From Narcine bancroftii (taxonomy: Eukaryota), in assembly GCF_036971445.1 (NCBI RefSeq), contig NC_091471.1, forward strand, positions 296,608,001-296,672,000: 64,000 bases of DNA, given 5' to 3'. Position 1 is the stretch's first letter; every line of letters begins with the position of its first letter. Positions 7,949-56,460 of this stretch are shown here, in pieces. Below the pieces are notes generated by a model, which did not search any database, was not told the DNA's origin, and saw only the letters and a program-made list of their open reading frames with translations. Position numbers and translations under genes: made by a program.

Positions 7949-9879
7949 CTGAAACACAAGAACTTCTGCATCATGCACATATATTTTACCATAATATCCT
8001 ACACAGAGCACTAAGCTGTGTAAGTGCAGCCAAACACAACCAAAGTCAGTGCAATATCTTAATTGCTGATGTGCTAAGATGATTGAAATTATACTTTACT
8101 AATGATGGTCGGTTACAAAAGGTGCTTGCTACTCCGTCATAGAGGCTTTGGTGTTTTTAAAATTACATTTGAATTGAGTCAGCTGACAGCCACCCAAGAT
8201 CAGTTCAGATATCACAATTAGACAACATTAATAAAATATTTTTGCAGCATTCAGCTTTGAAATGTCCTGAAAGCACCAGGAAAGACTTGGCAAGGTCAAG
8301 AGAATAAGAACTGGCAAAGAAATTCCTTTCCACCATTTCAATTCCTCAGCTTGACATGACAGTCCTGGCTGACTCTTGCAGAGGAGTGAAACATGAAAGT
8401 CTTCAGATGCTGTGATTCTAGTCAAAACACAGATGCTGGAGGAACTCAGCCAAGTCTTGCATTGCCCATAAGAGGTAAAGATATATACCATAACCAACAT
8501 TTCGGCCCTGAGCCCTTCCTCAAGGTATGCATATTCACATTTAGGGGTCAGGTTCAAGGGCAAGTGGCTGATTCCCACTTTAGTTTAAGTTCTTGTGCAG
8601 CCTACAGGGAAAGAAACCCCTTGATGTGCACGAGGTATAAGCTTTGTGACAAGAACAGAGTGATTTTATGCTCCACCTGAACCAGGGTTTCATTCTCCAA
8701 TGACACCTCCCTCATCTTGAGACAAGCTAAAGCACTTCTGAATATCATTCTGTGCAATAACATAGAATGTTTTCCTACATTCGAAAAAGCAATTCATACA
8801 CACCAACTGCTTTTGAAGTGTGAGCTGGGCCAACAACAATCACTGGGCTATTCGACAAGAGAAGAGGAAATCACATTCAAGCTCAGGATCATCTCCTTTC
8901 CTTCATGCGGCCATGGTGAAACTGCTGATCCCATGCCAGGACTGAATGACACACCAGGGTTCAAGCCAGGGCTTTTTGAGGGATAAATATTGGCACAAGC
9001 TCCCCATATTTTCTCGAAATTGAGAAATATAATCTTTTGATTTCACTTGACAAGGCAGTTGGAACTCTTTTAATAACTCTGACATTTCTGACATTGCAAC
9101 ACCAGTTTCAACCTGGATTCTACATTGCAGAATTAGACCTTCACAATCTGACTTACAGGTTGATTCCAATGATATTTACTTTTTTAAAAAAAATAAAAGC
9201 AGCTACAAATGAATTTCCTTGCCACCAGATGGTCAAAGATGATAATAGATTGGGAAAATTCAATGTTATTTATGCAAGGAAATTACATCGATAAATGTGT
9301 TTTTTTTTTTAAATTATACCTGAAAGACACAACTACTCATTTCCTGTGATGTACTTAGAAGTACATGGAAGTCATACAGCAGAGAAACAAGCCCTTCAAC
9401 CAACTGGCACGCATTGACCAAGTTGCCATCCCCAAGCTAGATATCCTTCAAAAGCTTTCCTGTCTGGTACCTGCCCAAATGTCTCTTAAATGTTGTTCTT
9501 GCAAGTGTACCATTTCCTCTAGCAGCTTGTTACACATATCCTCCAGTCTGCGTGAAGAGATACCGAACAAAGATAAATAAACATTGGAGAACATGGGATT
9601 GGACTGATAAAATGGTATGGATTAAGACTAATTTTTTGACAGAATGCAGATGAGAAACAAGTTGGTCATTTTCTGAATGGAATGAGGCGAATCCACGGAC
9701 CCTGCAGAGACACTGTCTCTCTTCTGCTTCATCTTCTCTCTTACTGTAAGGGGCACCAAGCAATACTAATGGTGACTCTTTGTCTGCCTTACAGCAAGCA
9801 GAAAGAAATTTCAGATAAAAATATTACATTTTCTGCATTATTTCATGACCATATAGGAATCTTGTTCACAATCTATACA

Positions 9880-10760
9880 CAGTGATGTGGAGGAGCAGAG
9901 AACTGTGATATATTCAAGTAAGCTGATGATGCAAATCAGATGGCAGACAAGATCAAGATATTGCAAGTACACATTATCCATTATTTATCTGGATTTTTAA
10001 AAAAAAGAATGGAGAGACTTCAGGGGAATGTTGACGCAAGGTGAATAGTGAAGGTCATGTAAGATGGAGCATAACACAGAACTTCTTCCTCCCTGGTTGG
10101 AAAAGTAGAAAAGCAGTAGTTTTACTCTAGTAGCAAAGGAAAAGTAATTAATATCCGGAGGAAGGATGTCCTTTCATATGAATCAATTAAAAATCAACAA
10201 GTAGGTACTCAAACAATTTGAAGGGCTAATGTTTTTGAATCTTGCAATTCTGAGAGCAAATAATTTCAAATGGAATGATATTCCACTCTTGTGAAACTGC
10301 AGCTGAAATAACATGTACAAGTCTGATCTCCCTACCCAATGAACAATGTACTTGTGACAGAGTGCAACCAGAAAAAATATCGCATTGATTCTTGGAAGGC
10401 TAGGTTTTTCAAGAAGGAGAGATTCAGCACAGTAGGCCTATAATCTACAGAATTTAGAAGAACGAGGAGCAATCTCAAAAAAACAGACAAAATACTTCCC
10501 AGAGTACATCTCAAAATATGGAGTCAGTCATTCAGGACACAGATGAAAAGGAACGTCTTCACCTAGAGAACAGTGAACTTTACAAAATTTTCCTCACAAA
10601 TGAAATACAAGATTTTGTAGCTGACTATAACAGAGGCCAATCAATTTTTCAATACGGTGGAAATCAACTGGTACAGGAATGCAACATTCAGCGGGATCTC
10701 TTATTGAAAGGTGAAGCAGGTGTGAAGAGATCAATGGCCTGCTTCTACTTTTCTTAAATT
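9880..10760 (+). mobile_element. Degraded CR1-like LINE
   Basis: ADD-like RT remnant, then typical CR1 3' blocks and tail (gaagcaggtgtgaagagatcaatggcctgcttct). Confidence 0.5.
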
Positions 10761-10808
10761 CTTATTGATCCAACATCAACGAAAATAGACGGTGAAGAAC
10801 CTCCTTAC

Positions 10809-10955
10809 CAGATAAACCAGGACACACATATGCTCCTTGGGTAGCCAGTGAAAGAGGTCTGCAGGATTACTGGGCAAAATCTCATCATCATGTAATGTGG
10901 AGATGGTTTGAATGCACTGCTGCAGCTGTTTCAGACAGGGCTTTACGCTTTTGAC
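10809..10955 (-). CDS. MAU2: MAU2 exon 8 (VKSVKPCLKQLQQCIQTISTLHDDEILPSNPADLFHWLPKEHMCVLVYL)
   Basis: 147 nt, cttcag/gtaagg boundaries; inside ORF 10776..10997. Confidence 0.96.
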
Positions 10956-12364: not shown

Positions 12365-12512
12365 TCAAGTATGAAACACGAAAGTCTGCAGAAGCTGCGA
12401 TTGTAGTGAAAACACAGAAACGTTGGAGGAACTCATCAGGTTTCGCAGCATCCTTAGGAGGTAAAGATATATAACTGACGTTTCAGGCCCAAGCCCTTCT
12501 TCAGCGTATAAG
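12365..12512 (-). mobile_element. Penelope-associated short element with canonical minimal hammerhead core
   Basis: Minus strand reads CTGAAGA-A-GGGCTTGGGCCT-GAAA-CGTC, followed by the family body (TATCTTTACCTCC...GAGTTCCTCCA...TGCAGACTTTCGTGTTTCA). Confidence 0.65.
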
Positions 12513-13443
12513 TGTGTCAAGTTTAGTTGGTTTCTTCCATAATTCTCACCTACCAACTTCATAAAAAACATTAAAAAAAATTATGATTTCAGCCTGGCAA
12601 ATTTATTATCTTCCCAACCCATTTGGACCAACTTCCCCAAATTGATGTCCATGAAACAAATGCAGACCGGAGATTGAGGAGCCAGTGTTACCAGGAATTT
12701 AGGGGGCATGAATGAATTTTGACACGGCAAAAGAATTTTGGCTGAGTTCAAGCTTATGGTTGGAAAAAAAGGGCAAGGTCGTTGCATATTAGAATAGTGA
12801 AGTTTCTGGCTATCTCTGGTATGGTATTGAGCCCGACACCTCCACTGGGAGCCACAGCACATTTAAATAAAAGCCTTGTTTTCTTTTCGCCCCATAATTT
12901 TTAAAAAAATTATGTAGTCAGTAGGAGAGAAGTACGGAATAAACTAAAACTTGACTGCTTCACAGGGTAGGGGGCCCATAAACATTGAGCAGTCCTTGAT
13001 GGTGGGGTGGGGGTGGCGTGGAGCTGAAAAAAGATTGAGAATAGCTGATTTGAGCTTCAGTAGAAAACAGCCTGATGTATGGATAGAATTAGACAGCAGC
13101 CAAGCTGAAAGCACAATTTTAATGATGGCACATCTGTGTGGTTTGAACCATGACCCACATCAAACCAAGGCTGTGAATAGTCAGGGCAACCTCACACAGT
13201 TTCTGAAGGAATGGGGACCCGTGGGAAGGGAATAGAGTTTGTAACAAGATCAAAGATAATGGATTCAGTGTTCCCACGTTTTAGTTGGAGGAAATCATGC
13301 AGAAGTTGGAAGAGGTGATAATGACACAGAATGGGTGGGTTACAATTCCCACAGTGGACATACAGTTTACAATATCTAGAGCAATGAAAACTGTATGCAG
13401 ATAATCATTAATTACAAATTATCTAAATTAAAAAAACACTTAC

Positions 13444-14457: not shown

Positions 14458-14779
14458 CTGTGAGAAAGGGAAAGAGTTGCCTCAAATTCTTATAACTGCC
14501 ATTAAAATATAGAAATACTGTACATGGTGTCATCGAGTCAAGAGGAAATGCAACATCAAATGCTGTGGAGTTAAACTAGACAGTGTGCAGACACTGCAAT
14601 TGTAGTTTGACATAGAAAAGTGCTGGAGAAACTGCAGACACACAAGAGTGGCACTGACAGAGCTGTTGTAATGGTGGCGCTGCCACTTGTGTGAACCCAG
14701 TGAGAGCACTTCTCTGCAGGGTCCTACTGCCCAGTCCTTCTGTCGACGGCTCCGTACAGGCTTTAAATGGCCTGATGAA

Positions 14780-16089: not shown

Positions 16090-16850
16090 AAACACAGAAA
16101 TTGAGAAAGAAAAGGAAAGAACAACCCCCCCCCCCACCCCAATCTGGATTTTGTGGGTATTATTACATAACAATAAAATGAACCTCAATTATTTTTATTA
16201 ATTATCTTAGTATTTTTAAAATTTATTTCTGTCTCTCAAGATATTACCTGATTCCAGCATTTTTGTGTATTGCACCAAAATCGCAGCGTCTGCAGATGTT
16301 CCTGTTTAACTCATCATTCACTGTCATTTGTGGGAATATGCTGTGTGCAAATTGGTTTCCACTTTACAAGAGTGATCTCTCTTTCAAAATACTTCCCTAC
16401 CTGTGATTTCTTGAAATCAGATAGGATGCAGGTCATTCACTGGGGCTCAGGCACAAGAGTGAAATTTGCATCATGGAAACACTCACTAACCAGGCCTTAA
16501 AAATTAAACATCTGCTAAGGAGTGACACCACAATCAATCTGGTCAAATTTCCTGTGAAGAATTAAACTTCAGATCCATAAATGAAAGGCACAGTTGAAAT
16601 AGAGGTTGACTACTTTGAGTGGTGTTCTTGGAAGTGAGAGGAGAAATGAAAAGTAATGCAGAGTTCACCTTAGGGATCGGAAAAATGCATACGAAAACCT
16701 CCTTGATTCGGTCTGAAGCTTCACCAGGGTGCACAGAAGCACTCCGAGTTTGTTAACCTCTTACTTCACTACTTCTGATAATTGTTAAAAAGTCAACTTT
16801 TACCTTGGCATGAAACCCCCATTAACCACAAGAAATCAAAAGGTACATAC

Positions 16851-16946: not shown

Positions 16947-19900
16947 CTGAAATACAAACAGTATTATTACCACAAACAAGGTCTCAAAAAAAAGGCAGAA
17001 AACAGTCCTGAAGACAATCAACATGGACATGTTACTATATGTGAAATGGATGCAGCAATTATCATGTCCAATGACTGAACAAGCCTAATAAGAGAGTATG
17101 CTTTCTTACAATTTTAAAAGGTCAATAAATAAGCGGATCAATTAAAAAAAAAAAGACATTTAGATTAAATAATGAGGTAGAGAGAGAAACTATTCCACTT
17201 GGTTCAGGAGTCTTGAAGCAGGATACATGGTCTAAAAGTTAGAGCCAGAACTAATGTTGGCAAAAACTTTGACACAGGGTCAGGAGCCAAAATTTATCAA
17301 CTCTCATCCACAAACATCAGTTGTTCACACAAAATGGACACATCTCCTTAACTCGTCTGCACTCTCAACCACTCATTTCCACTAATCCAATATCAATCCC
17401 ACAATATACTCAACACCCCTCAGATCCTACCACTCAACTGCAAATTGGGGGGGGAATTTACATGAGCTAATAAACATACCAATCTGCATCCCTTCGGGAA
17501 ATGGGAGGCAACAGTTCCACTAGTTGTGCTACAGTGCATCGAGGGTCTGACAACTTTTAAAAGGATCAGTGGATACAAGGAAAAGGAAGGCAAATAAATG
17601 GATTACTTCATGGATCAGCCAAGTTCAAATTTCAGGAGCTCGAATGGCCTGCTTCATGTCCTCAGAGTACAATTTTGTACTCTTCTGTTACAATCTCACT
17701 ATTTTATCAATTGTTCAATGGCTTCTCATATTGCAATCCCTGCAATAAAAAGATCCACATTCACTGAACCATCATGTCCTTTCCCAGGTCCTCAACCCTG
17801 TGAAACCAGTATTCTTTCTAAATATGGCTTTCAAAGTGCTGGTACTAAATGCCAGACTTTGTCCTTTTAGAACCCAACCAGATATGGACCTTGCACTTGT
17901 GGCCTGTCAGAATCTCCCTCACTGCACTCCTCCTATTCAGGTGTCCCATTGCTCCCAAAAGATAAAGCTTCCCTCAATTCAACTAAGGATTTTATTCCCG
18001 ACTCCTCTTGGTGATTAAAATTTCCTCTCCGTCCATCTTTGCATACTACCTTGTAAATTTAAACCCATCTGTAAATTACAGCAGATGAAGAGAGATGAAA
18101 TATGTGCCATCTTCCTTCCTGTTCATTTTGTCCCTTTACAAGGAACCACAAAACAACTCTGCAGGGAAAATTAACCAAATAAAGGCATTCAATATTAAAA
18201 TGACTGCCCTGAATTTTGAACCCACTAGCTACCTGTTGGGGAGAACTGGAAGACCAGGGAAAGGAAAAGCTTCACTCTGCTCACACTGGGTAGAAATGGT
18301 GGTGCCCAGGATGAAAAGCTGGCCGATGCCGCTTTTCCCAAAGTGTCTCCCTATCCCTGCCATGTAAGAGTCTTCATTTTTTATTAGTATGAAGTATACT
18401 AGTAAGGCTTTATCTGTAAACTTGAGGGAAGGGGTGTTAATTATGACAGCAGCATGGTTAATGTAGTGGCGAGTGCAACACTGTTACAGTCCCAGTAACC
18501 GGATGAAAGTAAACTTTACATAAGTCTGCAATAGTGTTTTTTTTTTCAAATTACTTTACATTTTGCATGTTTTTTTGTCTTTTAAATGATGCATTCTTAA
18601 TGTAGGTGTATTATTTAGGCATTGGAAGAGCGAGTCTCAGTCAACGGGAAAATTAGCATAAACGGTATCCGTGATCCCCATACATGCCAGATAATTGAGA
18701 TTCTACTGTAGTTCTATCCTTTCCTAGTCCAAACTCTCACTGCTCATTGAAATTAGATGAGAGAAAATATTTTTAACCAGCAATAGGCCAACAGAATAGA
18801 ATGAAGACAACCATTCAATGAAATATCAGGAAAAGATTTAAAAGTAGAGGCAGTTGAACTGAACAGAAACAAAAGAAAAGATTTAAAATCGTTTCAGAGT
18901 CTGCACTGAAGCCAGAAGGGAGAGTTTTTGACAAAGTACCACAGCACTGGAGGAAGGCGCATGTTGCTTTCCTGCTTCATAACTCATATTTAAAATGACC
19001 CTGTGAAAAGTACAAGGATATTGGTAATTGTAGCCAACTCATCTGAGCCAGCATTCACCCATAAAACAGTTATCCTTTCTGTCCATTTTCCATCTTCCTC
19101 CTGTTTTTGTATTAACCAATAATTCAAGAAGTGGGCACTTTAACATCATAGCCCTAAATTTTGTGCCCTTACTTGCGGATCTTTGGTACCATATTTCAGG
19201 ATTGTCAGCTGCACTTACATTATTCCCTCCCACCCTTGCAGAACTTCAAACACATCATCTGTATTGCTTGGAATCGGTGCCATTTTGATGAAGAAAGATT
19301 TTTTTTTTAAATTTCACATTGTGCTTCCTCACACAAAAAAATACCCAAGGGAGATTTTGTAATATCCTCTCGAAAACCACAATATCCTTCCCAGAAGGAG
19401 AAGCCCAATATTGCATGTTCACTGAGTTTTTAAACTTGTGCCTTGGCTTTTAACTATTCATTAGGAAATCTACAGTTCTTGCAAGTTTTGATGATTCCAT
19501 TAAACAGCTCCCATCAACGGCAAACACCCATCCATCCAAACTCTTCCACTGCAACAAGACCAGTCCATTCCATGGATAATTATTGCTATCCTATGAAATA
19601 AATGTCTCATTGTACTCTTGGAAATATTAAATTCCGCCTGTCACTAATCCCCTTTGTAGTTTATTTTGTTTTTCTAAACCATTGACTGTGGCCCCATTTT
19701 CTGATCATCAAATCACAATATAATCCCCTCTGGAACAACTTCCATTCATTGAATCAGTTGGCAGAAATGGTCCCCAGAACCGTATTTCAAATACCACCAT
19801 CCATTTTCAATCGATATGATCCTTAAAACTGTTGGCTTTCTCCTCAGTAACTTCATTGTGCTTCTTTTGTTCTCCTTCAGTTAGTTGGACAAAATCACTG

Positions 19901-20879
19901 CTTTTTCTGTTTTGTGTTGCTAATAGCTGGGCTTTACCATATGCTCAGCAGATACGGTTGTAGTTAACAGAGAGTAAAACTGAGCCAAAATCCCAGATGT
20001 ACAAGTTACAGCAGATATGGCTGGTTTTGATGGAGACAAAGGAATTTATCTGATGTTGGACAATTCAGTATGGAGTCCAATTTGCAATCTGCTCAGTTAG
20101 AAGAGGAGGTACTGTGTTGAACCTCATTGAAACAATGCAAGAGGCCACAGAAGTCAGTGAGATGGAGAATGTGGTGGTAAGATGCAGCCCAGGATTGCTC
20201 TTATCCAGTCAACCCCAATGAAGGGTTTTCAACCTGACATGTTAACTCTGCTTTTCTGCTCACATACCCTGTCTGACCAGTTGAGTGCTTTCAGCATTTT
20301 CTAATGTTATTTCCAATCTCTGATATTGCTCTTGTGAAAATATTGCTTAAATTTACATTCATGTTGGATATAACCACATCTTTGATAGCTCCAATTAATG
20401 CAAGTATTTATTGATTTATTGCTGGTTGTTTCCACAACTTAGTAAGTGGAATCATGAACATCTTTTACCTACATTTACACAATTCCTCTCCTTAAGCAAA
20501 CTACTGCACGAAGTTGCAAGCAAATGTTTCCTGACTGAAAACATTTCATACAAGTCTGCAATAAAATCATAAAATGCACATTTCAAAAGTTAACAAAAAT
20601 CAACGAAAGGTTTAGTCACATGGCTTCAATGGCAGTGAATATTTGAAGCTGAATGGTATTCACAAGACATACAATCAATTCTTCTGATGCCATTGGACAA
20701 TGAGAAAAGGGAACAAACCAAATTTCTGACTTCTCCCATTGGACACTCTCCTGTCAGCAAATGGCAAACTCCAGTTAGATTCGATGCAGATCACTCATTT
20801 GATCAGGCTTAGACCAAATCAATTATCTTGTGCAAAAGTATTTGGAAATGTCTACTGAGCCAGATTTAAATCAACCACA

Positions 20880-21410
20880 ATTTATTTCAGCTTGAAAAAG
20901 ATTCTATCACCAGACACATTCTCCTCCCCTTCAGCAATGATGGAACTGTTCCCCTTCTGAGTCCCTGGTCTGCTTTTCTATCCACAACAAACACATGGTG
21001 TTATAATACTTTTCTGTGCAGCCTCAGGATATGTCCTTTAATCTCTTCTCTACCCAACATCCAAACTCTTTCCAGGTGAGGCAGTGATCACTTGCACTTT
21101 TTCCTGTATTAAGTATTCACAATGTGGCCTCCTCTTCAGTGGAGAAAGCAAACAAAGCTTCCTTCTACCTTGAGGAAGGGCTCAGGCCCGAAACGTACAT
21201 TTACCTCCTATGGACACTGCGAGACCGGCTGAGTTCCTTGAGCATTTCCGTGTTTAGACTTTAATTCTCCAACCACCCTGACCTCTGCGGCCTCCTGCAC
21301 CATTTCACCAACTGCCCAGCAGAAGCTCATCCAAACACCTCATCTTCCACCTGGGCGAATTGCAGATTGAACTCTGTATTGAATTCTCCATCTTCAGGTA
21401 ACCTACATTC
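20880..21410 (+). mobile_element. Penelope-like element 3' remnant with nested hammerhead-bearing short element
   Basis: Degraded GIY-YIG-region blocks (ttccaggtgaggcag, cacctcatcttccacctggg) interrupted at about 21165-21260 by TTGAGGA-A-GGGCTCAGGCCC-GAAACGTA. Confidence 0.55.
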
Positions 21411-21924: not shown

Positions 21925-24072
21925 CTAACACACTCACATTAAGGATACATCAAAAATAATCATTTGAATATTGTTATTTCAAACCACTTTCCCCTCTGCT
22001 TTCTAAAAGCGTTGCAACATTAGGTCTGAGGGTAGAATTTTGAAGAACTAATGCACAAATGTCCACAATGTTATTCAGAAATTTGCCAGATGTACAATTT
22101 CCAACGTGGCAGAATGGAATCAAAACAAGTAACCATTAAGACCAAATGTATAATGAATTTTAACAACTCCCTAAAATATAGCTGTCACTGAGAAACAATC
22201 ATTTTCCACCTTCTCCATCCAACGACCCCAGTAAGTGTGGGGTAGAAATTTGAAAACCAACAAGAAGAAGAACTGCACTATATCTGAGAGGCACAAAACT
22301 CCAGAAGAAAGCAAAGCAAGGAAGCAAAAACAGAGGTGGATTTTAAAGAAAATCATGGAAGAGTGGAAGATGATGAGACTCAAACATTTAGGAAGCAAAT
22401 TCTAATCTTTGAAACTGAAAATTTTGTTAGTCATCCAAGCTCGAGGAGAAAAAAAACATAGGAACATAGTATTGAGGACACATGACTGGAGAATGCAGAT
22501 AGGAAAAGTAACTATGATGGAATGTAAATGAAAGACGGTGCATCTCAAATTGTAATTGTTGGGGGAGCAGTGTAAATTAGCAAGTCTGGGGAGATGGAGA
22601 TTAGATTTCAGTGAAGAGAATTTCTGTTTTATCATTTTAAGAGGATAGAAGATGAGAGATTGGCTAGAATACTGAAACAGTTAATGAGAAAATAAAGGAT
22701 TCGTGGAGGATTTCACTAAGAGGTGGACCAGGGTGGAATGAAAAAAATAAAACTAGAGATGAAAGTAGTCAGCTTTTGAGGATAAAATGGGATTGAACTG
22801 GTGTGAAAAAAATTACAAGTTTGTTGGAGTAATTAAATAATACGTCTTCAATCCTCCCTGGAGGAATCTGCTGATTATCTAACAATGGATGCCATACCAG
22901 CAGGTGATGCATAGGTGGTATAGTGGTCAAGATAGGCAATGGGCACTGGAACTGAACGTTGTCACAGCTGACCTCTCATCCATCGATGATATTATTGGAA
23001 TGTCCGCATGATCAAGAAAGAAAGAGTAAATGGAAACTCTTGGGGCACTGGAGAGGAAAGAAAGCGGAGCTAGGAAGGGTAGCCACAGACAAAACTTTTT
23101 TTTGAGGCACAAATATAAGCAGGAGTTCTGTAGCTATACTGAGCTTGGGGCAAGGGCTGCAAGATTCACTCCAATATGTTTACAGCAAAGAAGCATAAAT
23201 TGGATTACAAAGTGAACCAAAAGGACTACAGAATGAAGGGGGTAAAAATGAAAGGCTGCAGCCACCATGGTTGAAGTATAAACACGATGTTGGAGACACT
23301 CAGGAGGTCAAGCAGTGTACTTTACATAGCAAAGATAGATACATAACCAACATTTTGGGCTTCAGCCCTTCATCAAAATATGAAAAAGATGTAGGCAGGT
23401 ACCATACCAACATTTTGGGCTTCAGCCCTTCATCAAGATATGAGCAAAAGGTAGGCAGGTTCCATACCCAAATTTTCAGGCATTAGCCCTTCATCAAGGT
23501 ATGAGCAAAATGTAGCCAGGTGCCATAATCAAGGTTTCAAATTGAGCCCTTCATTTACATATGAGCAGACTGTAGGCAGGTGCCTGAATCCAGGTGCATG
23601 CCTACATTTTGTTCAAACCTTAATGAAAGGCTCAAGCCCAAAATGTTATGCATCTTTATCTTTGCTACATAAACTGTTTGCTACACTGTTTGACCTGCTG
23701 AGTTTATCCAGCATTATGGTTTTACAATAAGAATGAATGATATTTTACTTAAAAAATGTTACAGAGCAAATTATGGAGTCACCTTTCTGTCTGCCTTTTG
23801 GACATGGATTCAAATGGCTTAATTTATCATTGAATTCTCATTTTCATTTTACATTGTTCTTCAGGCCAGTGCTTAGACTCCAGAACCACTTCTGCTGAAT
23901 CCAAGCAATGAGATGCAATGCACTAATTTGCTTGATCTGGGTATAATCATTCTTGATTGCAAGAAAAAAATGATTAGCAAGAATTAAAATGAGAAAAGCA
24001 ACACTTCTTCAGCAAGACCACCGCTAAGCCACCAGCTACTCACTTTACCTTTGTTTAGAATAAAAAGGATAC
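21925..24072 (-). other. MAU2: U12-type (minor spliceosome) GT-AG intron 2 of MAU2
   Basis: Donor GTATCCTTT at 24072-24064. Branch site TCCTTAAT at 21945-21938, about 12 nt from the AG, with no polypyrimidine tract. Confidence 0.9.
23272..23728. repeat. Fold-back element with four tandem ~60-bp hammerhead-like units
   Basis: Units at about 23342, 23402, 23462 and 23523 (cataaccaacattttgggcttcagcccttcatcaag..tgagcaaaa.gtaggcaggt); 23592-23728 is an inverted copy of the left arm. Confidence 0.8.
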
Positions 24073-24090: not shown

Positions 24091-24979
24091 CTGAAAGAGA
24101 AGAAAAAATTTTTTTTTAATTAGTCACATTGGTGATATTGCAAATCAGTAAAATCTACCCTGTGACATAACAACTTGGCATGCTCACACAAGGGATTCTT
24201 TATTGCAAAATTTCTTTATATCCATTTCTTTTTCCATCAAAGGAAACTTCACTGTCCAATATCTTCATTAATTGAGCAGCACCAGTTTGATGCAGCCTAA
24301 TCATTATTTCCTCATTATCATAATAGCTCCTGTCAACCGTACTCTTTTGAATCTGCTACTTAAACTTCAAACTCCCCTCCGATCTTGCAATCTTTAACAC
24401 AGAAATGCTGGAAGAACCAAAACATCAGTTATATACCTTTACCTAGCATGGACACTGCCAAGTTCTTCTAGCACTTAATGCATTTGAACTATAATCACAG
24501 TATCTGTAGACTTTAGTGTTTCATTTCAACCAGTGAATGTGCTGCAAGTTCAGAGATGAGGGACGAACTGCTTTACCCAGAGGGTAGTGAATCAGTGGAA
24601 TTCGTGGCCTATTGAAGTAGTGGAGACAAACTCAGTAAATACACAGTATTTAAGACAAGGTTGGATAGATTTCTACATGGTATGGGAATTAAGGGAAATG
24701 GAGAAAAGGCAGGGAGGTGACAATGAACCTATCACATTGTCACATGATCACAGTGAATGGCGGAGCAGGCTCAACAGGCCAGATAGCCAACTCCTGCCCC
24801 TATTTCTTCTGTTTCAATCTTTCACACTTGTTTGGATCCATCTGCCATTTTATGACTGCTGTTACAAATCCTGCTGCTTCCTCTGACAGCCTTCCTCAGA
24901 ATCCACTTTTTTTTTAATGGTTGAGAAGCGATGGGAGTCAGACATTGGTGTTGTAATATCAGAAAGATGATGTATGGAT

Positions 24980-28530: not shown

Positions 28531-29619
28531 GTGGGGAGCAGTCTGTTGTGGGCACGTTGGCTGCTGCTGCAGAGACGGGGGCGAGAAGACCAGGATCGTT
28601 GGAGCTGTGTGCAACGGATTAAATAGTTTGAAGGTGTGCAAAATGAAATTTGCACCTTGGCCGAAATATGAGAACGTTCTCCTTTGGTGCTCAGGGAGAG
28701 CTGGGGTTCCACGTTCAAGTTTATTGTCATCTGATTGTGCAAGTCCAACCCGACAAAACAGCTTCGGTGTACAAAAATGCAGATACACATCCAGACATAA
28801 TACATACCGACAAACGAAGCATGCAGTTAAAAACAAACAATGCTCAATGTACTTTTTGTAGCATCCCTTGATGAAGGACTGAAGCCCGAAACGTTGGTAA
28901 TGTAAATGTTAGAATCTCGGAGGGTTTGTTTGAGCAGTTCATTCAGTGGTTCAGAAGTCTTGCTGTCTGCGAGAAGAAGCTGTTTCTCAGCTCAGTTTCT
29001 CGTCCAAACATAATGAAGGCAGCAAGCAAGGAAGACCTCGGAATGTATTGTAAGCAAGAGTAAAATCACATGCGGAATGCAATGTAGAATGTTGCCCCCT
29101 TTATTTAAGGAAGGATATTACAGTAATTGTCTTAAAGGTGCAGCCTCAACACCTTCGTTCCTGGAGAAGGGAGCTGTTATACAAGGCTTAAACGATAGGA
29201 AGTCAACGAATGAAAGCTGTTCTCCTTAAGAGTGATAAAATTCTGAGGTTGTTTCCAAGAAGCTGAGAACTGGGAAGGAGGGGCTGACTGTCGGAACACG
29301 GGGAAGGTCACTTTGAAATTCTCTATCTGGGCAGGGGTGGTCAACCTTTTAATTCATAAATACAGAACATTTCGGTCCACGAGTCCGTACCGGCGGTGTA
29401 GGTTAATTAGGCGGACGCCAAATCATATAACTGTACTTAATATTTTGGCAAATAAAATCAGAACAACCAGCTTTAATGAGTGGTGAAGCAGTCCCAAGGG
29501 GTTCATATATCTACTCCTGTTTATTTCCTAATCTGACTGAAGGAATGACATGATAGGTATTCTCTGTCGTCACAGATTTTGATGGAGGGGACACTGATTC
29601 AAACTGATATGTAAAAACT

Positions 29620-30836: not shown

Positions 30837-30930
30837 ATGGTGCATGTCAAGGTGAAGCAGGACCTACCTCCTCCGGGTGGCTACGGTCCGGTGGATTATA
30901 AGCGGAACATTCCGCGCAGGGGGCCCTCAG
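30837..30930 (+). CDS. NDUFA13: NDUFA13 (GRIM-19) exon 1
   Basis: [31 protein letters not shown] is the diagnostic NDUFA13 N-terminus; 94 nt, donor gtagga. Confidence 0.96.
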
Positions 30931-32821: not shown

Positions 32822-34862
32822 TTCTAAAGCATTCCCCCAAGTAGAGGAAAGCTAAGACTTGGAATACACTCGGGAAATATTTCCTTTTTGCTTATATATT
32901 GAAGAAGGGATCAGGCCTGAAATGTCAGTAATGCACTATATCTTTACCTCCGATTGACACTGAGTTCCTAGTGTGTTTTTACTGCAATCACAGCACCTGC
33001 CATCTTCCATGTTTCACTTCTCACCCATGCCAGCCAGGTTGCTAACCTGAACTAATCCCATTGGCCTGCTCATGGCCAATGCTTGTTATCATGCCTGTCT
33101 CTGCATGTCCCAGAAACGTACTTGTGAATCTTTTTGACACCATGTTTATTTAAGCATTTCCTTCCTGCATTAAGGGGACCAGAATTTCACACCTTTTTCC
33201 AGTTGAAACCTCACCAACGTCCTGTAGAACTGGAACTTGATGTCTCCACTCTCGTTGTCGGTGCCCAGTCTGAATGACAAACCCCTTCATCACCCTTTTT
33301 CCTGTGTCATCCCTTTGAGGGAACTCTGGTCTCACAGCTCTGGATCTCTGTTCTTCAAGACTTTCCAGAGCTCTGCAATTTTCTGTGCAAGTACTGGCCT
33401 GTAGGGTGTACAAGAAGACCATCCCTAAAGATGCCCTGAGGCAGAGAAGACTGTGGATTGAGTGCTGGAACATGGCATTTATAGGGGTGGATACCACAGG
33501 TCAGCATGAATGTGGTGGGCAGAGCAGTCTGCTTCAAAGCTGCATGACTCCGCCACATTGATTTAGAAATTTATCATCATTCTAAGTTTCAATTCTGGTG
33601 CTCCCTTCCCAAGAGTACAATCAGAGCCACCTGTTCCAACCAGTGACATTTGGCTCTGTGTGATTATAGAAAATAACACTGCAACATTCCCACAGTTTTT
33701 GCTCTTGAATCTTAGCTGTAAGGCATCCAAGTTGTCCTGAGATGACATCATGCCATCTGATTTGTGAACTGTTCTCGCCAGCATCGCTCAGATGGTGAAT
33801 GTGGGGCATTCTGGAAATATTTAGAATTGTTAGTTTTGTGCCTGGGAGTGATGATTTTCTGTGATGACTGCACATAGAGTACTCATTCCCCCCCCCCCCC
33901 CCAACAGTTTTTGATTAGCATTGTTTCTGTTGCTGTAGACTCCCAAACATCTCTCCAACAAGGGTCCTGCTCCACTCACATGACCAAGAATCTCAAGCCG
34001 CCTCCAGTAGCTTTACCAAACCAAATTTGACATTGAACCACATACGATGAGACTGGAGGGTTTAAGGCTTGTCATCATAGTGAATTTATGAAAGGAATCC
34101 CAGATTTGAGATCAAAGAATCCAGATCACTCAGGTCATGTCTGCCACTAGTGAGGTGATATAAATGAGAGGAAGATGCTTTAGGTTGAGAGTTTAGTTCT
34201 GAGTTCTCCAGAGAGTCATAAGGCTAGAAGAGATTACAGAATGAGGGAGAGGTTGGGACAGGGAGGTATTTGAAATCCAGGGTGATTTTCTTTTAAATCA
34301 AGGCGTTTCCTAAAAACAAACACATTAGATCAGTGAGCCAAGGGTTTTGGGAGCTTGGGGTGAATGTAGTTTACAGAGGATGCATGTTACCATGTTTGAA
34401 GGACAAGCAGAAATGAGTTCTTCCAAATATTCAAGTTTTTTTTGTGTTTCAATCTGCATGACCTGTTGCATGTGTTTTACTGGGCAAATCATCCAGAATC
34501 CAGGAATTCATCAAGAGCATGAGAGTTCACATCTCATGACAGCTGTTTGAGTAAATATGTATGGTTTTAAACAGCGGGGATCAGAAATAATATTTTCAAA
34601 ACTATCAGAAAGTTGGACAGGCAGTACTGAATGTCTCTTTTGACACATTGGAACTGCGTGCCTGTCTCCCATCCTGCACCAAGTCTGAAGAAGCCTCAGG
34701 GCCTCAGTTTTACCACCACTCTCAGGACAGTAACCCAGGGAAATGCCCAAATCTGAAGCAGCGCACTGATTTAAGGGGAGGAAATGGTTTGATTCACCCT
34801 TATGCTGACCTTATAATGTATTATTCGTGAGGTGCTGACACCATATTTGTTTGTATTTGTAG

Positions 34863-34941: not shown

Positions 34942-35753
34942 GTATGTCTCCTCCCAAACCACCCCTCTAAAACTCTATTTACCTTATTCACGTCCCGCAG
35001 TTCAGTTAAAGACAGTTGCAGGTTTCATCTTTACACATTAAATCTTGCCACACCCCTGTTTTCAAGAGTGCTTTGTGGAAGGAATGGCTTGCTCCTGAAG
35101 CATCGATGATTAGGGAATGCCTAGGGGGGAGGGGGGCGGGGTTGATATTTTGGTCTTTGCAGACTAGCCACTGTTTTGGATATTTCAGAAGAGAAAGATT
35201 TGAAGGTGAAATGGTTTTACAGGTTAGTGGGATTACAATTATTAGCACATTCAAAGAGATTATTTTTGCATGACTAAGAGCTGGAAAACTCCTCTGAATC
35301 TACACCTTTCTCCGGAAATTCATTCTTTCTGGAAATGTGTTGTTGGACTGTCCATTGGAGCAGAGGTGAGAAGTACCTTCAGTCAGAGGGTGGTGAATCT
35401 CTGGAATTCATTGCCATTGGTTGTGGAGACCAAGTAATTGGGTATATTTTAAGGGTGACTGAAGGTTATGGGGACAAGGTAGGAAAATGAGAGGAAAAAT
35501 ACATCATCCATGATTTGAATGGCAGAGCTGACTCAATGGGCTGAATTCCGCTCCTGTCTCCTGACCATTCTTTGAGCTCCATCTTCAGTCACCGTCATTG
35601 TGATGTGAAACATCAAAGTTTGTGATTGTAGTAAAAACATGGAAATGCTGGAGGAACTTGGCAGGTCTCGCAGCATCCATAGGAGGTAAAGATATATTCC
35701 AGACATTTTGGACTCGGGCCTTTCCTCAAGGTATGAGTGGAAAAAACTTCACT

Positions 35754-38159: not shown

Positions 38160-39810
38160 GCACTTTACTTATACCGTGAGGAAGGGCTCAGACCAGAAAT
38201 GTCGGTGATGTATATTGACCTCCGATGGATGCTGCGATACAGCCCGAGTTCCTCCAGCATTTTCGTATCAGTGCCCTCTGGTGGAGATCAGAAGGAAAAC
38301 TACTTATTCAAGATTCCTGTAGTCATGTAATAATACAGAACATGTAATATTACACAAAATTTCCTTCTGCTTCCCATAAGGAAGACAGAGTCCCCAGCAT
38401 TATTGCCTGGTATCTTTTTACGGTAAGAGCAAAAGAGAGTCCCTTCAGAATAACTGAGTGTTCCAGCACTCCCACAGCCTCTGCAGCCACATAGTCTCCT
38501 ATCCGATCCATCGGCACACTGAGCTCCAGATCCAAAACTTCCAACACAATGAGAAAAATTCACCCAAGGTCTTTTGGGACCCCCATCTTGCCCTCACCAC
38601 CTTCTCAAATCTTGGTTCCAAAAACTGGTTCACATGCACCAGTCTCCTGCAGCCCGGGCGGGTCCTCCAACCGCAAGTCACCCGTGTGGGTCCCTCAGCC
38701 ACTGAGCCCCTCACTGGCACCGTCCTGTAGGGTCATCTCTGCTTCTCCATGTGGAAGGGGGCACAGAATGTTCTCCCCGTATCTGGTTCCCTGCACCAGT
38801 CCGCTGCTGCCCCTGTGTTTGGTACCCCTTGTGGACTCTGTCGAGCACAGGCATCTTGAGCGCAGACTTTGTGGTTGATGGATTTTACTTTATAACACCT
38901 GTTCGGAGCTGCCATGTGATGTTTGGATCCATGGTGGAGGTCAGAACAAAAACTTGTACAGTCATGATCAGCACAATTTGAATTAAGGGAAGGCCATTTG
39001 GCCCTTTGCAGTCTCCACCCTTCATCAGGATTCACTTCCGGCTCCACTCTGCAGGAGTTTCCTTGGTGTGCTCCTGTTCCTCCCACATTCCACAGGGAAG
39101 TTTGTGAGTTGTGTATGGATGGGGAAAATGAGGAAATGGGCTTGCTCTTTTGGAAGTTGGTGGGCCACACAGACTCCTGGATAATTTTAAGATTTTCCTG
39201 CACTATTCACAACTCTTTGTTCCCTGAATACTCCATAAAACTTTTAAATCAATGACTGAGACGCCACAGTTCTGAGGGAGAGAATTCCGAAGATTAACCA
39301 TTTGTCTCAATCCAAGGTGGCTGAGTTACTCTGACCCCAATTTGAGGCTAGTTTGCTGAAGGAGACAACCATGGTGTTGAGCCTTTGTAAAATTACTCTG
39401 CCCATCTGTGAATATAGGTGTTCATTGCAAGTCTAGCCTTTCGGAAAAGAGAACAAAGTTGTAACTATCCTCCCAAAGTCATCTCACTGGAACCCAACTC
39501 AATCTCAGTAATTTACTGGTGCACTCAATCCCTCTGGTAATGTTGGCCATTTAACTTTTGTTATTGCCATTTGCAACGTTCAGGGGCAAGGATGTGCACA
39601 AGGTCCCTTTAAACATCAACATCTCTCAATCTATGTCTTTTTTAAAACATTCCTTTCCACATGCTACTCACTTGCTCCCCTCTTTGCTCGTAATTGCCTC
39701 GTGTATCATCCTGACCTGCCAGACGCTTGAACCATTACTACATTGACCTTTTATTACAGGCTTACAGTTTCGTGTGATTTTATTTCTTCCCCACCCCCAC
39801 CCCCCCCCAG

Positions 39811-42179: not shown

Positions 42180-43480
42180 GCTTTCACACAGGTGAAAACA
42201 AAACCAGTAGGCACAGAGTCAAGCAGTTAACAAATCCGACCTCCTGCCGGGCCTTTACTATTTAACCCCTGCTTGGTTTTACTATTGCCTCTGACCTTGC
42301 CCTCTCTGAGATGGAATGCTCTGTCTTAGGTAGAGGCCTCACCTTCATCCTTTGCCTCCACTCCAATGAGTTCTGCACATGCTCAAACTCTTCTTCCATG
42401 GTCTCCATGTGTACATCTTCAATCAGGATTTTCCACCCCTCACTGAGGACCCCTTCTGCCTTCAGCCTTCCTGCCTTTGGACACCCCATTCTGGGTTTTT
42501 ACCTGATCTGGATCTTTTTATCTTCCACTGCTGTTGACACATCAACTGCTTGTCTTAACCACTCCTTCCCCCCCCCCCCCCACTTAATCAGATCTCAACC
42601 CCCCTCCGGAACACACAGCCCTTCTCTCTCTGTGCCAATCCTGTCTCTTCCTACCTACATTCACAATACCTCGCATGCCCTCCATCACCTTATCAACATC
42701 CAGTTCCCTCAAGTCAAGTGCCTCATTTTCACAATGGACATCCAATCTCCATTTCCCATATTAAAGGTTTCAAAGCCCTTTGTTTCTTTCTCAACAAAAG
42801 ACCCAAGCAGTCTCCTCCTCTGGCTCACCCTCAATAACTTCTTTGGCTTATCCTACTTTCTCCAAGTCAAAGGGGTAGCCATGGTTACCTGGATGCATTG
42901 CAGCTATGCCTGCCTTTTTGTTGGCTGTGTGGAGCAATCCATGCAACAAGCTGATATAGGCAAGGCTTCTCAACTCTTCCTCCGTTCCATTGATGACTCC
43001 TTCGGTGCTGCCTCCTGCTCATCAACTTTATCCACTTTGCTGCGAACTTGCACCCTGACCTCAAATTCACCCTCCCCTTTCTCAATATTTGCCTCAATCT
43101 GAGGAGACAACCTAGTTACAGATATTTTCTACAAACCTTGTAACTCCCACAGCTATCTTGACTACACCTCAACACCGTCTCTTCTATGGATTCTATCCCT
43201 TTCTTTCAATTCCTCTCTCATCTGATTTCAGTATGATGTCTTCCGTTCCAGTTCATTCAAGATGTCTTCCTCTAGAAAAATGTGCCTTCCCCTCTCCTTC
43301 CATTAACTCAGCCCTCAACAACATCTATTTCCTGCACATCTGCCCTGGATTGTACACCCTGAGAAGCAAACAGGATTCCCTTTGTCCTCACCTACCAGCT
43401 TTCACATCCAACCTATCATCCTTTGCAATTCCTGCCAACTGCAACATGATCCCACCACTGGACTCATTTTCTCCTTCTCT
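42180..43480 (+). mobile_element. Penelope-like element, degraded RT
   Basis: ORF 42311..43102 contains FTMDIQS, LTLNNF, YFLQVKGVAM, SYACLFVG and FLRSIDD, the Penelope RT motifs. Confidence 0.8.
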
Positions 43481-43689
43481 CTCCTTTCTGCTTGGACCAC
43501 TCACCCCTTTGGGAACAACATCCCTGGGAATTGCTTCTACTCCAGGACCAATCAGGTAACTGGCCAGGCAAGCTCGATGATGCATGACAGCAACATACTA
43601 CTCACAGGCTAATTGGAATCCAATTTCCTTTGTTTAAAAACAAAAATAACCAAATCAAGTGATGGAGCTGATTGGCCAGGTTAATTCTT

Positions 43690-44250: not shown

Positions 44251-44999
44251 GTCTTGTTTCAATACTACTTTTTTTCCTGGAGTAAATATTACAGCCAGTG
44301 TTCTGAACCTGAACCGATTCTATTTCAACAGATGCTGTCTGACTGGAGTCCCATCTCTTTAATTCTGATTTTCAACAGCTGCAGTTTTTTTTACACTACC
44401 CAGTCTTCTTTTGCTGCCCATTCAACACCTTCACTTTTCTGAAGTCCAAAACAAGATGGTATAAGTAAATCATAACCCCTTCCTTTTTCATGTTATATTT
44501 TTGTTGTGTGTAGTTGGTTAAACTGTCCTTCAAACCAAACATCAACCTTATGGGCCTGCTGTCAGCATCCTCTTGGTGGACAGCATTAAGAGCAAAAAAA
44601 ATGCTGGAGGAATTTAGTTGGTCTCGCAGTGTCCATAGGAATTAAAGATATATTATGTTTTGGGCCTGAGCCCTTCTTCAAGGTATGATTTTTTTTTAAA
44701 AAAGAGAGGCATCTGTATTGAAAGAGAAGAATTGGAGGGAGAGGTGCACAAGACCAACAGACAAAAGGTGTTAATTGGATATGATAAAAGGCCAGGAGAG
44801 AGGAAAGGTGAGAATTGATTTTGGCTCTGAGAAAGGAGACAGTGAAAATGGAAAAGAGAGAGACAGGCATCTAGAGGACAGGATCACAACATCTGCAGAC
44901 TTTCACGTTTCACTCACTACTATTGAGAAACATGAAAGGTTTGATTCACATGGAGATTCAGGACAACCAGGTCAAGGGTGTACCCAATTTGGGTCTCAT

Positions 45000-53960: not shown

Positions 53961-54425
53961 ATTTATCAGATGGGTTGGCTTTTTTCTGAACAGAGGAGGC
54001 TGATGGGATGAGACTCAGTGGAGCTGTAATTAGGGTATTGAATACCAGAGGGCATATGTCTATGGTGAGCGCTCAGAGGTTTAGAGAGGACCCGAGGTAG
54101 AATTCCTTCACCCAGAAAGAAGCTGACATCTGAAACAAACTGCCTGAGGTTGGCCGGGACAGGTAGCCCCATAAATATAATAACCATCCAGGCGAACACT
54201 TCAGTCTTCAAGGCACAGAAGGCTATGACTGTGCCAGCAACCAGTGTGGACAGATACTTGGGCCTGGATGGGGTGATCCACACAGCTTATTCATTTCAGC
54301 ATCTTGCTATGATAAGTACAATTATCCGAAGCCCCTCCCCCCATCTTATTTCCTCCATGTTTATTTTCCTGTGTACCAAGGTTCAATGAAAAGATTTGTG
54401 TGCAGTCAACCAAACCAAAGCATAC

Positions 54426-55400
54426 TGTGACAGAGTATATAACTGTGTTTTTGGGTGATAAATTGGGAAAGGTTTGTAGAGAAAGTTGCATACAAACACT
54501 TTAAAACAGATCTTACTTAAAATACTGGAGCTCTGCTAATGCTAGACATATCAGCTCTATGGCTTTTGCAAGAGCTTTGGAGAGTGCCCAAGAAACTTCA
54601 CTAATGGATTGTTGTTTACAAAAGACAACAGATGAAAGATCTTGTCAGAGCTGCCTTCTGTCTGAAGTAGAGCTTGCTGTTCTAAGAGGGACATGTGGCT
54701 TTGCAAGTAGTCAAACAGTTTTTCTCTCTAAGAGACCGAGAACGAGATTGTTCTACAGTGTTACAGCCAACAGGCAGCTGAGACTGGAACAGGACAAGCT
54801 GGCAAGCTTGCGGAAAGCTCAATTTGGAAGACGGCCTGGTCAAAGCCCTTGTGGTTCATGCAAGAGGAGAGGACTGGCTGTCTAATGTTTCACTTGGAAT
54901 AAGAGAAACAAAAATGCACTGTGGTGACCTGAAAGAAAGAGGTTATCATCTGGAGAACCCTAAAGGGGTAAGTTTCGTCAGCAAGACACTGAAGTGGCTG
55001 ATGGAAATACATCAGTTGTAGATGTCCTGGAACAAGAAATCTCTCACTGAAAACTGACAAGAACCTTCCTAAATGGTAACCATTTACCTTTCAAGCATCA
55101 AAGCCTGGTGAACTTTATAAATGTTAAATTCTGTGTACAGTATAAGAATTGCCTGCAACCAGTGAACTTGGAGGAATGAGAAGTGAGATTGGACTGTGAA
55201 CCAAAGAACTTTTCTGAACTTCCACACACATTACATACATGTGTTTAGAATTAGAAGGGGGTTAAGTAAGTCAATAGTGATAAGTTAAAGTTTGATTCTA
55301 TTTTCATGTTTAAAGATAATTAAAAGCAATTTTTGTTTAACCATTTGTCTTTTACTAGTAATATCTATTACTGGGTTTTGGGGTCACCTTGGCTCATAAC
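54426..55400 (+). mobile_element. Solo-LTR-like repeat, copy 2
   Basis: Same termini (TGTGACAGAGTA ... CTCATAAC) and long near-identical blocks shared with 494-1372. Confidence 0.6.
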
Positions 55401-55639
55401 TTAAATGCTTAAATGACCATCGATCAGTGGCATTAACATACACAGGAATAAAGTGTTTTGAGAGGAGGCAGCCCAATAGAGTATGTTCTTGAATCACGTA
55501 GTTTTGGTCAACATCATTTTCTTATAACGCTGATGAGAAAAGAAATTAAATACGACAGTATTTTAGTGTAATGAAAAATTGATTTTGTTTAACGTAACGT
55601 TTCACGTAAAGTAGCACTTTCTAAGAACATATGAACAAC

Positions 55640-56460
55640 GTTAAGTGAGGATCTGCTGTACATCACAGGTAAAACCTTCCTCACCATTGAGAACATCTAC
55701 AGGGAATGTTGTCCGCTGTCAGACATCAAGGATCCACACCACCCAGCACATGATCTGTTCTCTTTGTTACCATCAGGAAAGAGGTATAGATGCCACAAGG
55801 TTCGCACCACCAGGTTCAGTAACCACCATCATTATATTCCCAAACATTAAGGACTCTTACTCAGACAATAAATCAGAATATTGAGATAGGAGGGTTACAG
55901 TGAGAACTAAACAAGAATGTCTGCAGACACTGTAATTGTAGTTGTAATAGAAAATGCTGAAGAAACTGATGTAGCAAAGGTAAAAGTACATAACCAACAT
56001 TTCGGGCCCGAATCCTTCATCAAGGTATGAGCTTAAAGCAAGCAGACATTTTGAGTTTGAGTAGAGTAAATGTAGTACTTGGGTGAGTTCATTCAGTCAT
56101 TTGATTATAGCGGGAAAGACACTGTCCTTGAATCTAGTGCTGCAAGATTTCATGCTCGAATCTTCATTCTGGTGGAAGTGTGGCTGCTTTGGGATGAACC
56201 CTGTGGTATGTCGGCAGTTTCTTTTCTGAGGCCTCAGTATGTGTTGATGTTGTCGATGGGCCGTCTGAGCTGCGGTCACAATTCTCTGCAGTTTCTCGCT
56301 GTCTTGAGCAGAGCAGTTCTATCATACAGTTATGCACCCCGACTGGATGCTCTTGATGGAAGTTGTTGAGGGACACCTGGAACATACCAAATTTCCTCAG
56401 GCTCATGAGGAAGTAGAGGTGCATCTTCTTGGCCATCTTGTCGACAAGGGTGGTACAGCC
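55640..56460. mobile_element. Cluster of Rex/Babar fragments and one hammerhead-bearing short element (~55915-56030, minus)
   Basis: DPHHPAHDLF-type motif (+); LRKFGM and STRFKDSVFPAIIK (-); CTTGATGA-A-GGATTCGGGCCC-GAAATGTT on the minus strand. Confidence 0.6.

Follow-up and report, generated by a model that had tools for sequence, protein, structure and literature searches.

The 64-kb window, by which we mean the whole stretch of 64,000 nucleotides analysed here, harbors a family of old, short repeats, now dead, that probably arose by reverse transcription from the end module (pseudo-LTR) of a cartilaginous-fish Penelope-like element (PLE). Their hammerhead motif has U instead of C at position 3 opposite a retained G8, and is predicted to cut slowly or not at all. 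The element type, the extra A in the core, the tail and the inverted pieces are all ordinary; the core variant U3 is modestly surprising. The copies and the related remnants are as follows.

6376..6490, plus strand: older, divergent relative of the body, core only partly present (E 3e-6)
8385..8534, minus strand: subfamily A copy with a U3 core (8497-8523), body and tail (core pattern, family model)
12370..12515, minus strand: subfamily A copy, body and tail present; the sole C3 copy, first stem I pair broken
14570..14633, minus strand: core-less fragment, end of body plus tail
16253..16310, plus strand: core-less fragment, end of body plus tail
19882..20169, minus strand: second remnant of the older PLE, endonuclease end plus downstream region
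20211..20301, plus strand: older core and body in heavy decay; by eye, C at position 3 (E 3e-4)
20870..21400, plus strand: decayed end of the GIY-YIG endonuclease from an older PLE; the copy at 21160 interrupts it
21160..21256, plus strand: subfamily A copy, U3, tail-less, stem I 3' strand deleted, within the endonuclease remnant
23245..23731, both strands: subfamily B fold-back insertion with a possible 8-nt flanking repeat
24395..24524, plus strand: copy truncated within the core (start about +15), short inverted piece at its 5' end
28862..28906, plus strand: U3 core without body, between the first exons of MAU2 and NDUFA13; stem II A.C mismatch
29938..30047, plus strand: subfamily B copy, U3, G5A, without tail
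32888..33018, plus strand: subfamily A copy, U3, internal deletion, with tail
35604..35740, minus strand: subfamily A copy, U3, G12A, with tail
38164..38266, plus strand: subfamily A copy, position 3 is G, without tail
42266..43495, plus strand: decayed PLE reverse-transcriptase remnant (tblastn E 1e-35)
44595..44915, minus strand: longest copy; U3 core (44655-44681), body present, tail absent
55909..56045, minus strand: subfamily B copy, U3, intact stem I flanks, with tail
58359..58403, plus strand: tail-only insertion with an 11-nt direct repeat on both sides

Fourteen cores were found with a fixed 27-nt pattern (at most three mismatches), whereas 100 dinucleotide shuffles gave 0.00 matches on average. 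They lie on the minus strand at 8497-8523, 12478-12504, 23350-23376, 23410-23436, 23471-23497, 35703-35729, 44655-44681 and 55997-56023, and start on the plus strand at 21170, 23620, 28868, 29941, 32899 and 38176, where a preliminary description made from the letters had placed about 14 copies. Three of the four array cores which it put at 23345-23555 match the pattern, whereas the fourth array unit (23528-23564, minus strand) is a decayed fifteenth core recognized only at E = 0.2. The shared body that it saw beside the core is also present, 3' of it, in two subfamilies, A and B, about 19% apart in an alignment count of their consensuses. All of the copies are old, with 77-91% identity to their own subfamily consensus, and none of the 14 has the core, the palindrome and both stems intact together. 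No consensus structure was obtained for the body, and a search for relatives of a 48-codon open frame running through the copy at 12371-12514 found none.

The core geometry supports the assignment, made earlier, to the minimal type I hammerheads of PLEs. Positions 4, 6, 8, 9, 13, 14, 15.1 and 16.1 are unchanged in all 14 cores, which also share G8, A9 and an extra unpaired A between 9 and 10.1, while the free positions N7 and N17 each show three states. G12 is kept in nine cores. The palindrome ACGU (15.1-16.1, in place of stem III) is intact in only four, most of the other copies having CpG-type changes. Stem I flanks are found at 55989-56029, as had been described. Position 3 is U in 12 cores, C in one (12504) and G in one (38176), so that most copies depart from the canonical CUGANGA...GAAA...UH core, and the reported predominance of UUGANGA holds. 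Because printed U3 members exist in the PLE minimal type I class, U3 is treated here as a class variant and not as a reason for exclusion.

U3 is an inherited trait of the family and not decay, since both subfamilies have it whereas the metagenome counterparts are mostly C3. Among the matches listed from a metagenome pattern scan that covered 28 of 64 parts, 108 of the 116 distinct same-geometry ribozymes had C3 and eight had U3; with a stem II of at least three pairs, the numbers were 99 and two. The family body was matched in none of the best metagenome matches among those listed, and a core pattern scan of the genome-contig and viral-contig collections gave 0 matches. A variant table from sequencing contigs holds no C row at position 3, which is weak evidence because the rows for G12 and N7, two positions that must vary, are also missing and the table is thus biased. 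Another register, in which C is position 3 and a U is inserted, was rejected: by eye, stem I pairs in no register but the standard one. U3 also allows an alternative CCUU/AAGG hairpin, which has four pairs in nine of the 12 U3 copies but in none of 97 C3 controls; as a mechanism it was rejected, being predicted to dominate only in two copies with a weak stem II and to be near zero in the majority sequence.

With regard to selection, fixed non-CpG core positions differ in 4 of 120 cells, as compared with 62 of 503 in the body (p = 0.003), in a test that used the 11 copies also found by a body-only model, small-sample consensuses and hand-set CpG filters. Changed A/T cells number 0 of 87 in the core and 22 of 281 in the body. 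Between the subfamily consensuses alone, none of about 14 fixed core positions differs at about 19% divergence, a borderline estimate of roughly p = 0.05. Compensatory changes were seen in none of eight pairs of stems I and II in the 14 window copies, which are decayed, belong to one family and offer little power, and the covariation score (0.117) was below the shuffle mean (0.158). The opening pair of stem II (10.1-11.1) is G-C in eight copies, G-U in three and unpaired in three, and 83.9% of all stem II cells are paired. An A.C mismatch in stem II common to three copies suggests relaxed selection in one branch. The Rfam hammerhead models gave no match in the window and none in 16 control same-geometry loci, which makes that search uninformative.

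Weak catalysis is expected of U3, given a type III hammerhead in which every mutant with one or two changes in the CUGA region, the C:G to G:C swap excepted, is reported to have low activity (PMC9901934). Selection would have gone on acting on the core of the source elements once U3 had appeared, likeliest for the fold or for low, protein-assisted cutting and not for fast cleavage. We tentatively entertain the broader idea that a vertebrate PLE lineage amplified massively with U3.G8 fixed, uncompensated and unreverted, the fold being kept as a protein-binding structure or slow switch, which would mean that selection was not for cleavage speed. As for catalysis itself, it is possible, if doubtful, that U3.G8 is well tolerated and that the ribozyme cuts usefully when dimeric or with the PLE protein bound to it. 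The remaining core positions stayed constant, unlike N7, N17, the loop and the body, which diverged; the Poseidon ribozyme is reported to cut only with its protein (PMC11167929), the tolerance of core changes differs between hammerheads (PMC3884650), and a PLE-linked acorn-worm ribozyme has the same pair (PMC4209133). However, when this pair changes in nature, its partner usually changes too, giving U3-A8 (PMC3088659), and the mutants of the region had low activity (PMC9901934), whereas position 8 in the family is never A (G in 14 of 14). It is unlikely that U3 killed the ribozyme of the founder and hitchhiked, with the core no longer under selection: the lack of covariation and the stem II mismatch in three copies agree with this, as do insertion in vitro without any need of cleavage (PMC11167929) and the success of Naiad PLEs without canonical hammerheads (PMC8557442), but the core cells vary about four times less than the body cells.

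The copies were likely made by a PLE reverse transcriptase (RT), as had been proposed. The RT remnant named for that role is confirmed at 42266-43495, where the best named matches are cartilaginous-fish proteins. The endonuclease remnant at about 20870-21400 is confirmed weakly, by frameshift-aware scores of 77 and 71 against control maxima of 59 and 53, a single-frame HMM search having given no match. The part of the claim that makes these remnants the mobilizer is unsupported, because the 21160 copy interrupts the endonuclease remnant, the region downstream of the latter does not match the upstream part of the U3 family (score 33, null 95th percentile 32), and the RT remnant is on the strand opposite to the nearest copy, about 1 kb away and unjoined to it. 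The remnant at 19882-20169 is about 72% like the stretch from 21262. It and the copy at 20211 lie head-to-head, so that within 19882-20301 an endonuclease end faces a homologous core and body of old age. The different downstream region of the old endonuclease remnants weakens the reading of the copies as a PLE end. In metagenomes, same-geometry ribozymes of the C3 type lie 72-132 nt past a PLE endonuclease end in 14 of 16 same-strand loci, among the matches listed, and an endonuclease match was recognized at 25 of 121 loci, likewise among those listed.

Of 22 fragments, 11 end 3' at +129 to +134, seven at +88 to +104 and four elsewhere, giving two end classes about 40 nt apart; the family model itself stops at +129 to +134, past which point the copies diverge. 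The PLE RT would initiate internally at two sites, about 90-100 and 130-135 nt past position 3, yielding copies without and with a tail, a behavior that Poseidon of Anolis has shown in vitro. Tail-only pieces are found at 58359 and, inverted, at 44881, at the far end of its insertion. The template was probably uncut RNA: all of the copies long enough to include the ribozyme continue across the cut site. The dispersed copies mostly begin close to the 5' edge of stem I, as if they were products of a short or 5'-defined RNA, and the core-less fragments have staggered 5' ends. Copying would mostly halt at that edge, probably the RNA 5' end inside the pseudo-LTR, and only a few products would go further. 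General target-site duplications were not apparent in 14 insertions, the longest flank repeats averaging 5.2 against a null of 4.8. The inverted pairs exist, although the 'often' attached to them was an overstatement: cores are on both arms at 23245-23731 only, with four core units of about 60 nt, body and tail on the minus arm and one core and body without tail on the plus arm (23591-23731), and two further inverted neighbors (24395/24414 and 44595/44881) have no second core.

The longest copy (44595-44915) carries a high-copy, pyrimidine-rich upstream part (44751-44842), which occurs once within the window, and a lone inverted tail (44881-44914, plus strand) at its other end. In sequencing run X1, 13,454 contigs aligned to 44520-44980, where depth is high over the core, the pyrimidine-rich part and the tail and about 8 over the flanks; contigs connect the core to the upstream part, for example across 44688-44751 in 25 contigs. 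Runs X9 and X11, which bear two other organism labels, show the same depth profile. In run X5, guessed to be RNA, a deep contig of 2,314 nt ends in the element; it is not counted as evidence of expression. The contigs reveal no molecule ends.

These data also bear on a quite improbable origin, an independent, SINE-like, non-autonomous element derived from the pseudo-LTR, transcribed from just upstream of stem I and mobilized in trans by the PLE RT, with U3 only in the parasite and C3 kept in the helper. Eight of the 10 dispersed copies lack upstream homology past 17 nt, a 5' clustering that fits such an element equally well, and no U3 copy in the window is joined to an RT or endonuclease ORF; on the other hand, the family extends more than 150 nt upstream in many contigs, at about the depth of the core, and the staggered 5' ends of the core-less fragments also stand against it. 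Very improbable is a retrozyme, in which tandem units self-cleave as dimers, circularize and spread via circular RNA, and the earlier label 'retrozyme-like' is not sustained. The window does hold one array of about 60-nt units (period 60, 3.9 copies), of a size inside the 51-972 bp range (bioRxiv 10.64898/2026.07.22.740005), and its units 3 and 4 can form all 21 of the pairs checked for a double hammerhead. But this is the sole array among 11 core-bearing loci, the rest being dispersed; it has no intact unit (G12A or a broken stem III) and forms one arm of a tailed PLE-type fold-back. None of the 22 fragments starts within 10 nt of the cut site (+28), their two-site tail pattern is that of PLEs, and eight of nine predicted Xenopus retrozyme dimers failed to cleave. 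The array would represent a local partial-tandem or DNA-level expansion and not an active circular-RNA family. That U3 arose by independent post-insertion decay of ordinary C3 ribozymes has practically no chance, and is refuted within the window, despite the age of the copies and sporadic U3 elsewhere (2 of 101 metagenome ribozymes with stem II, among the matches listed), because position 3 is outside any CpG and is U in 10 of 12 insertion arms (p ≤ 3 × 10-7 at a 15% independent change rate).

PLE hammerheads cut poorly in vitro, one needs its own protein to do so, and catalytic mutants still insert (PMC4209133, PMC11167929). With its uncompensated change at C3-G8 and a core otherwise frozen, this high-copy family amounts to an experiment by natural mutation on the need for cutting. 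Should the U3 family prove unable to cut, cleavage is not needed in vivo and the fold serves some other purpose; should it cut, the descriptors used to search for hammerheads, which begin with CUGA and so overlook the family, ought to include U3.G8. In the literature that our search covered, no paper was found that discusses U3.G8, which does not establish its absence from print, and none was listed on cartilaginous-fish PLE ribozymes.

The closest relatives in print are the minimal type I hammerheads in metazoan PLE pseudo-LTRs of Cervera and de la Peña (2014; PMC4209133), which likewise lack a real stem III and have a palindromic 15.1-16.1, G10.1-C11.1 and a short stem I. They too are mostly single and dispersed, from truncated PLEs, with some opposite-strand pairs. 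The extra unpaired base between 9 and 10.1, taken for unusual in the preliminary description, is a known trait of this class (PMC4209133). The family differs in U3 with G8 from most of the 56 representatives in Fig. S3 of that study, which have C3 and include no cartilaginous fish; U3-A8 occurs there in Schistosoma mansoni 3 and 4. U3 with G8 is found once, in the PLE-linked Saccoglossus kowalevskii 1, uncommented in the text examined, which gives the pair one printed precedent. The core variants of Perreault et al. (2011; PMC3088659) also change at position 3, but there U3 covaries with A8, whereas G8 is kept here. Small PLE hammerheads that cleave as dimers are, by its title and its citation in PMC6765202, the subject of Lünse, Weinberg and Breaker (2017) and belong to the same ribozyme class. 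With the non-LTR retrozymes of metazoans (Cervera 2020, PMC7229834; Li et al. 2026, bioRxiv 10.64898/2026.07.22.740005) the family shares a PLE pseudo-LTR origin and one short head-to-tail array; however, retrozymes are defined by at least two consecutive tandem units, each with a complete ribozyme, and by monomeric linear and circular RNAs, in contrast to the dispersed stubs and one dead array here. PLE insertions are known for a one-sided tail of 30-40 bp and an inverted 5' copy (PMC8557442), habits matched in the window by the two 3' end classes about 40 nt apart, the tail-only pieces, inverted pieces at three loci and the staggered 5' ends of core-less fragments. In layout, the family is like Poseidon of Anolis carolinensis (Frangieh et al. 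2024, PMC11167929), in which about 100 nt come after the hammerhead and two RT start sites define an optional tail of 30-40 nt, with an AC-rich stretch at the start region and insertion from uncut RNA. It is unlike Poseidon in that the latter has a C3 core and begins its ORF within the ribozyme; in the window, the corresponding place holds an ATG only in copies with U at N7. Insertion in vitro is unaffected by catalytic mutations in Poseidon (PMC11167929).

Based on a fixed 27-nt pattern, 14 hammerhead cores were matched in the window (none in 100 shuffles), and a profile search added a barely recognisable 15th core inside an array of short units; the insertion loci bearing cores number 11. 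Position 3 is U in 12 of the 14 cores, C in one and G in one, and all 14 share G8, A9 and the extra A. In this U3 family (U at position 3 with G8 kept, U3.G8), the body sequence lies 3' of the cores and splits into two subfamilies, to whose own consensus the copies are 77–91% identical. CpG decay is visible (G12 is kept in 9 of the 14 cores and ACGU in 4), and none of the 14 copies has the core, the palindrome and both stems all intact. Inverted pairs proved less frequent than the preliminary description had claimed, cores being found on both inversion arms at one locus only.

Judged from the copies themselves, U3 is inherited and not a product of independent decay. Position 3 lies outside CpG, U3 is present in both subfamilies alongside all three N7 states, and it occurs in 10 of 12 insertion arms (p ≤ 3e-7 under a 15% rate of independent change). 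As an outside control, the same core geometry was searched in metagenome contigs (28 of 64 parts covered), yielding at least 128 matches at least 116 of which were distinct, in at least 121 loci. Among the distinct matches listed, 108 had C3 and 8 had U3; among those listed with at least three stem II pairs, the counts were 99 for C3 versus 2 for U3. Public contigs aligned to 44520-44980 came from three sequencing runs with three organism labels (13,454 from X1, 1,310 from X9 and 16,049 from X11); C is not listed at position 3 in their table, but the G12 and N7 rows are also missing, so that this carries little weight. U3.G8 is a real, inherited variant of a known ribozyme class. Sporadic U3 cores are also seen in metagenome animal DNA within otherwise C3 families (L042:3501-3527, L089 and L111), consistent with single-copy decay.

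Cervera and de la Pena 2014 (PMC4209133), in the parts covered here, give an unpaired base between 9 and 10.1 as a regular trait of the minimal hammerheads of Penelope-like elements (PLEs), likewise a palindrome at 15.2-16.2 and the occurrence of pairs on opposite strands; a family with U3-A8 is also described there. Among the 56 representatives of their Fig. S3, U3 with G8 stands in one PLE-linked acorn-worm row and U3-A8 in two, and none is from a cartilaginous fish. The extra A, previously called unusual, is therefore ordinary in PLE minimal hammerheads, and U3.G8 has been printed before; in the text covered, this precedent goes uncommented, both as a trait of a family and as a feature of one copy.

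Stem covariation, proposed earlier as a check, was not found. In 11 copies that are also detectable by the body alone, a small sample, differing non-CpG cells amount to 4 of 120 in the fixed core versus 62 of 503 in the body (p = 0.003), and variation is concentrated at N7, N17 and loop 2. Decay of dead copies is expected to strike core and body alike, so the surplus of changes in the body probably goes back to source elements that differed from one another but had preserved the core along with U3. Set against this conservation is a stem II mismatch common to three copies (28868, 29941 and 56023), all with A at 10.3, giving A.C, which suggests a sub-branch with a weakened stem. In two of the three, an alternative hairpin using U3 is predicted to be favoured. 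By analogy with studied hammerheads, U3.G8 would be a weak cutter, since, in the parts of the sources covered, natural changes at this core site are usually compensated (PMC3088659) and only a G:C swap rescued this region in a mutational scan (PMC9901934). The ribozyme may nonetheless be active, because tolerance to core changes differs between hammerheads (PMC3884650) and a protein able to assist cutting is described for Poseidon (PMC11167929), again from partial coverage. An open frame of 48 codons at 12371-12514 (-) extends across the core, the body and the tail; a search for related proteins found none, and the frame may be due to chance or be an ORF start as in Poseidon.

The array comprises four units of about 60 nt, within the minus arm of a fold-back. 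Double hammerhead pairing is predicted as possible for units 3 and 4, but both carry G12A, and stem III is broken in unit 2. Since one CpG has decayed in opposite ways in unit 2 and in units 3-4, we infer that at least two units are older than the decay. The retrozyme-like reading offered earlier is not borne out here, as the array lacks the consecutive complete ribozymes by which a retrozyme is recognised.

The DNA of the window is vertebrate. Family copies 28868 and 29941 lie between two head-to-head first exons (28090-30930):

28090-28512 (-), first exon of a MAU2-like gene
near 30840-30930 (+), first exon of an NDUFA13-like gene

Directly after the latter is a G-rich tandem repeat (30938-31854, period about 36). 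A GC-rich segment at 47565-47933 (-) with a short ATG-led frame is possibly the first exon of a further gene; Pfam gave no match. An open 745-aa LINE-type reverse transcriptase (RT) frame (RVT_1, zf-RVT) and coiled-coil ORF1-like frames occur at 51330-53567 (-), 62813-63757 (+) and 36498-37361, and 36498-37361 and 62927-63771 are 71% alike.

The U3 family continues upstream. In the contigs, the depth over 44751-44842 matches that of the core, and many contigs connect these two parts; of the loose contig ends beyond 44688, the most frequent one is similar to the upstream portion of the array unit. A decayed RT at 42266-43495 (+) has its best named matches in cartilaginous fishes, and its close relatives have RT and GIY-YIG domains, as in PLEs; it lies on the strand opposite to the nearest U3 copy. 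Elsewhere (other animals, metagenome), a ribozyme of the same shape follows the end of the PLE endonuclease by 72-132 nt in 14 of the 16 informative loci listed. At L001/L002, a near-complete PLE ORF lies between inverted C3 hammerheads, one side being 132 nt after the endonuclease end. In the window, an old homologous core and body (20211-20301) stands head-to-head with a second old endonuclease end (19882-20169). A decayed C3-like core near 21655-21685 (+) and a body-like piece near 21730-21800 (-) are candidates recognised by eye only.

None of the U3 copies in the window connects to an ORF. The copy at 21160 splits an older endonuclease remnant, and the region downstream of that remnant showed no match to the upstream part of the family. 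In 8 of 10 dispersed copies, upstream homology is absent beyond 17 nt. The preferred reading is that RT ran as far as the 5' end of an RNA lying within the PLE end module (pseudo-LTR), where, according to the part of PMC2377424 covered, the Penelope transcript starts; a separate short parasite would fit this observation as well. The copies are likely ordinary truncated PLE ends.

None of the 22 fragments mapped to the family model starts at the cut site, and the templates were therefore likely uncut RNA, by analogy with the Anolis Poseidon study. Counted from hammerhead position 3, 3' ends fall at +129 to +134 in 11 fragments and at +88 to +104 in 7. The 44595-44915 insertion bears a lone inverted tail at its far end; a tail-only insertion of about 45 nt (58359-58403) lies between exact 11-nt direct repeats. 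The two classes of 3' end and the lone tails match the tail pattern of PLEs: in the parts of the sources covered, PLE insertions are described as having a tail of 30-40 bp at one end only, together with inverted 5' pieces (PMC8557442), and in Anolis Poseidon RT has two internal start sites 3' of the hammerhead, the tail being the sequence that separates them (PMC11167929).
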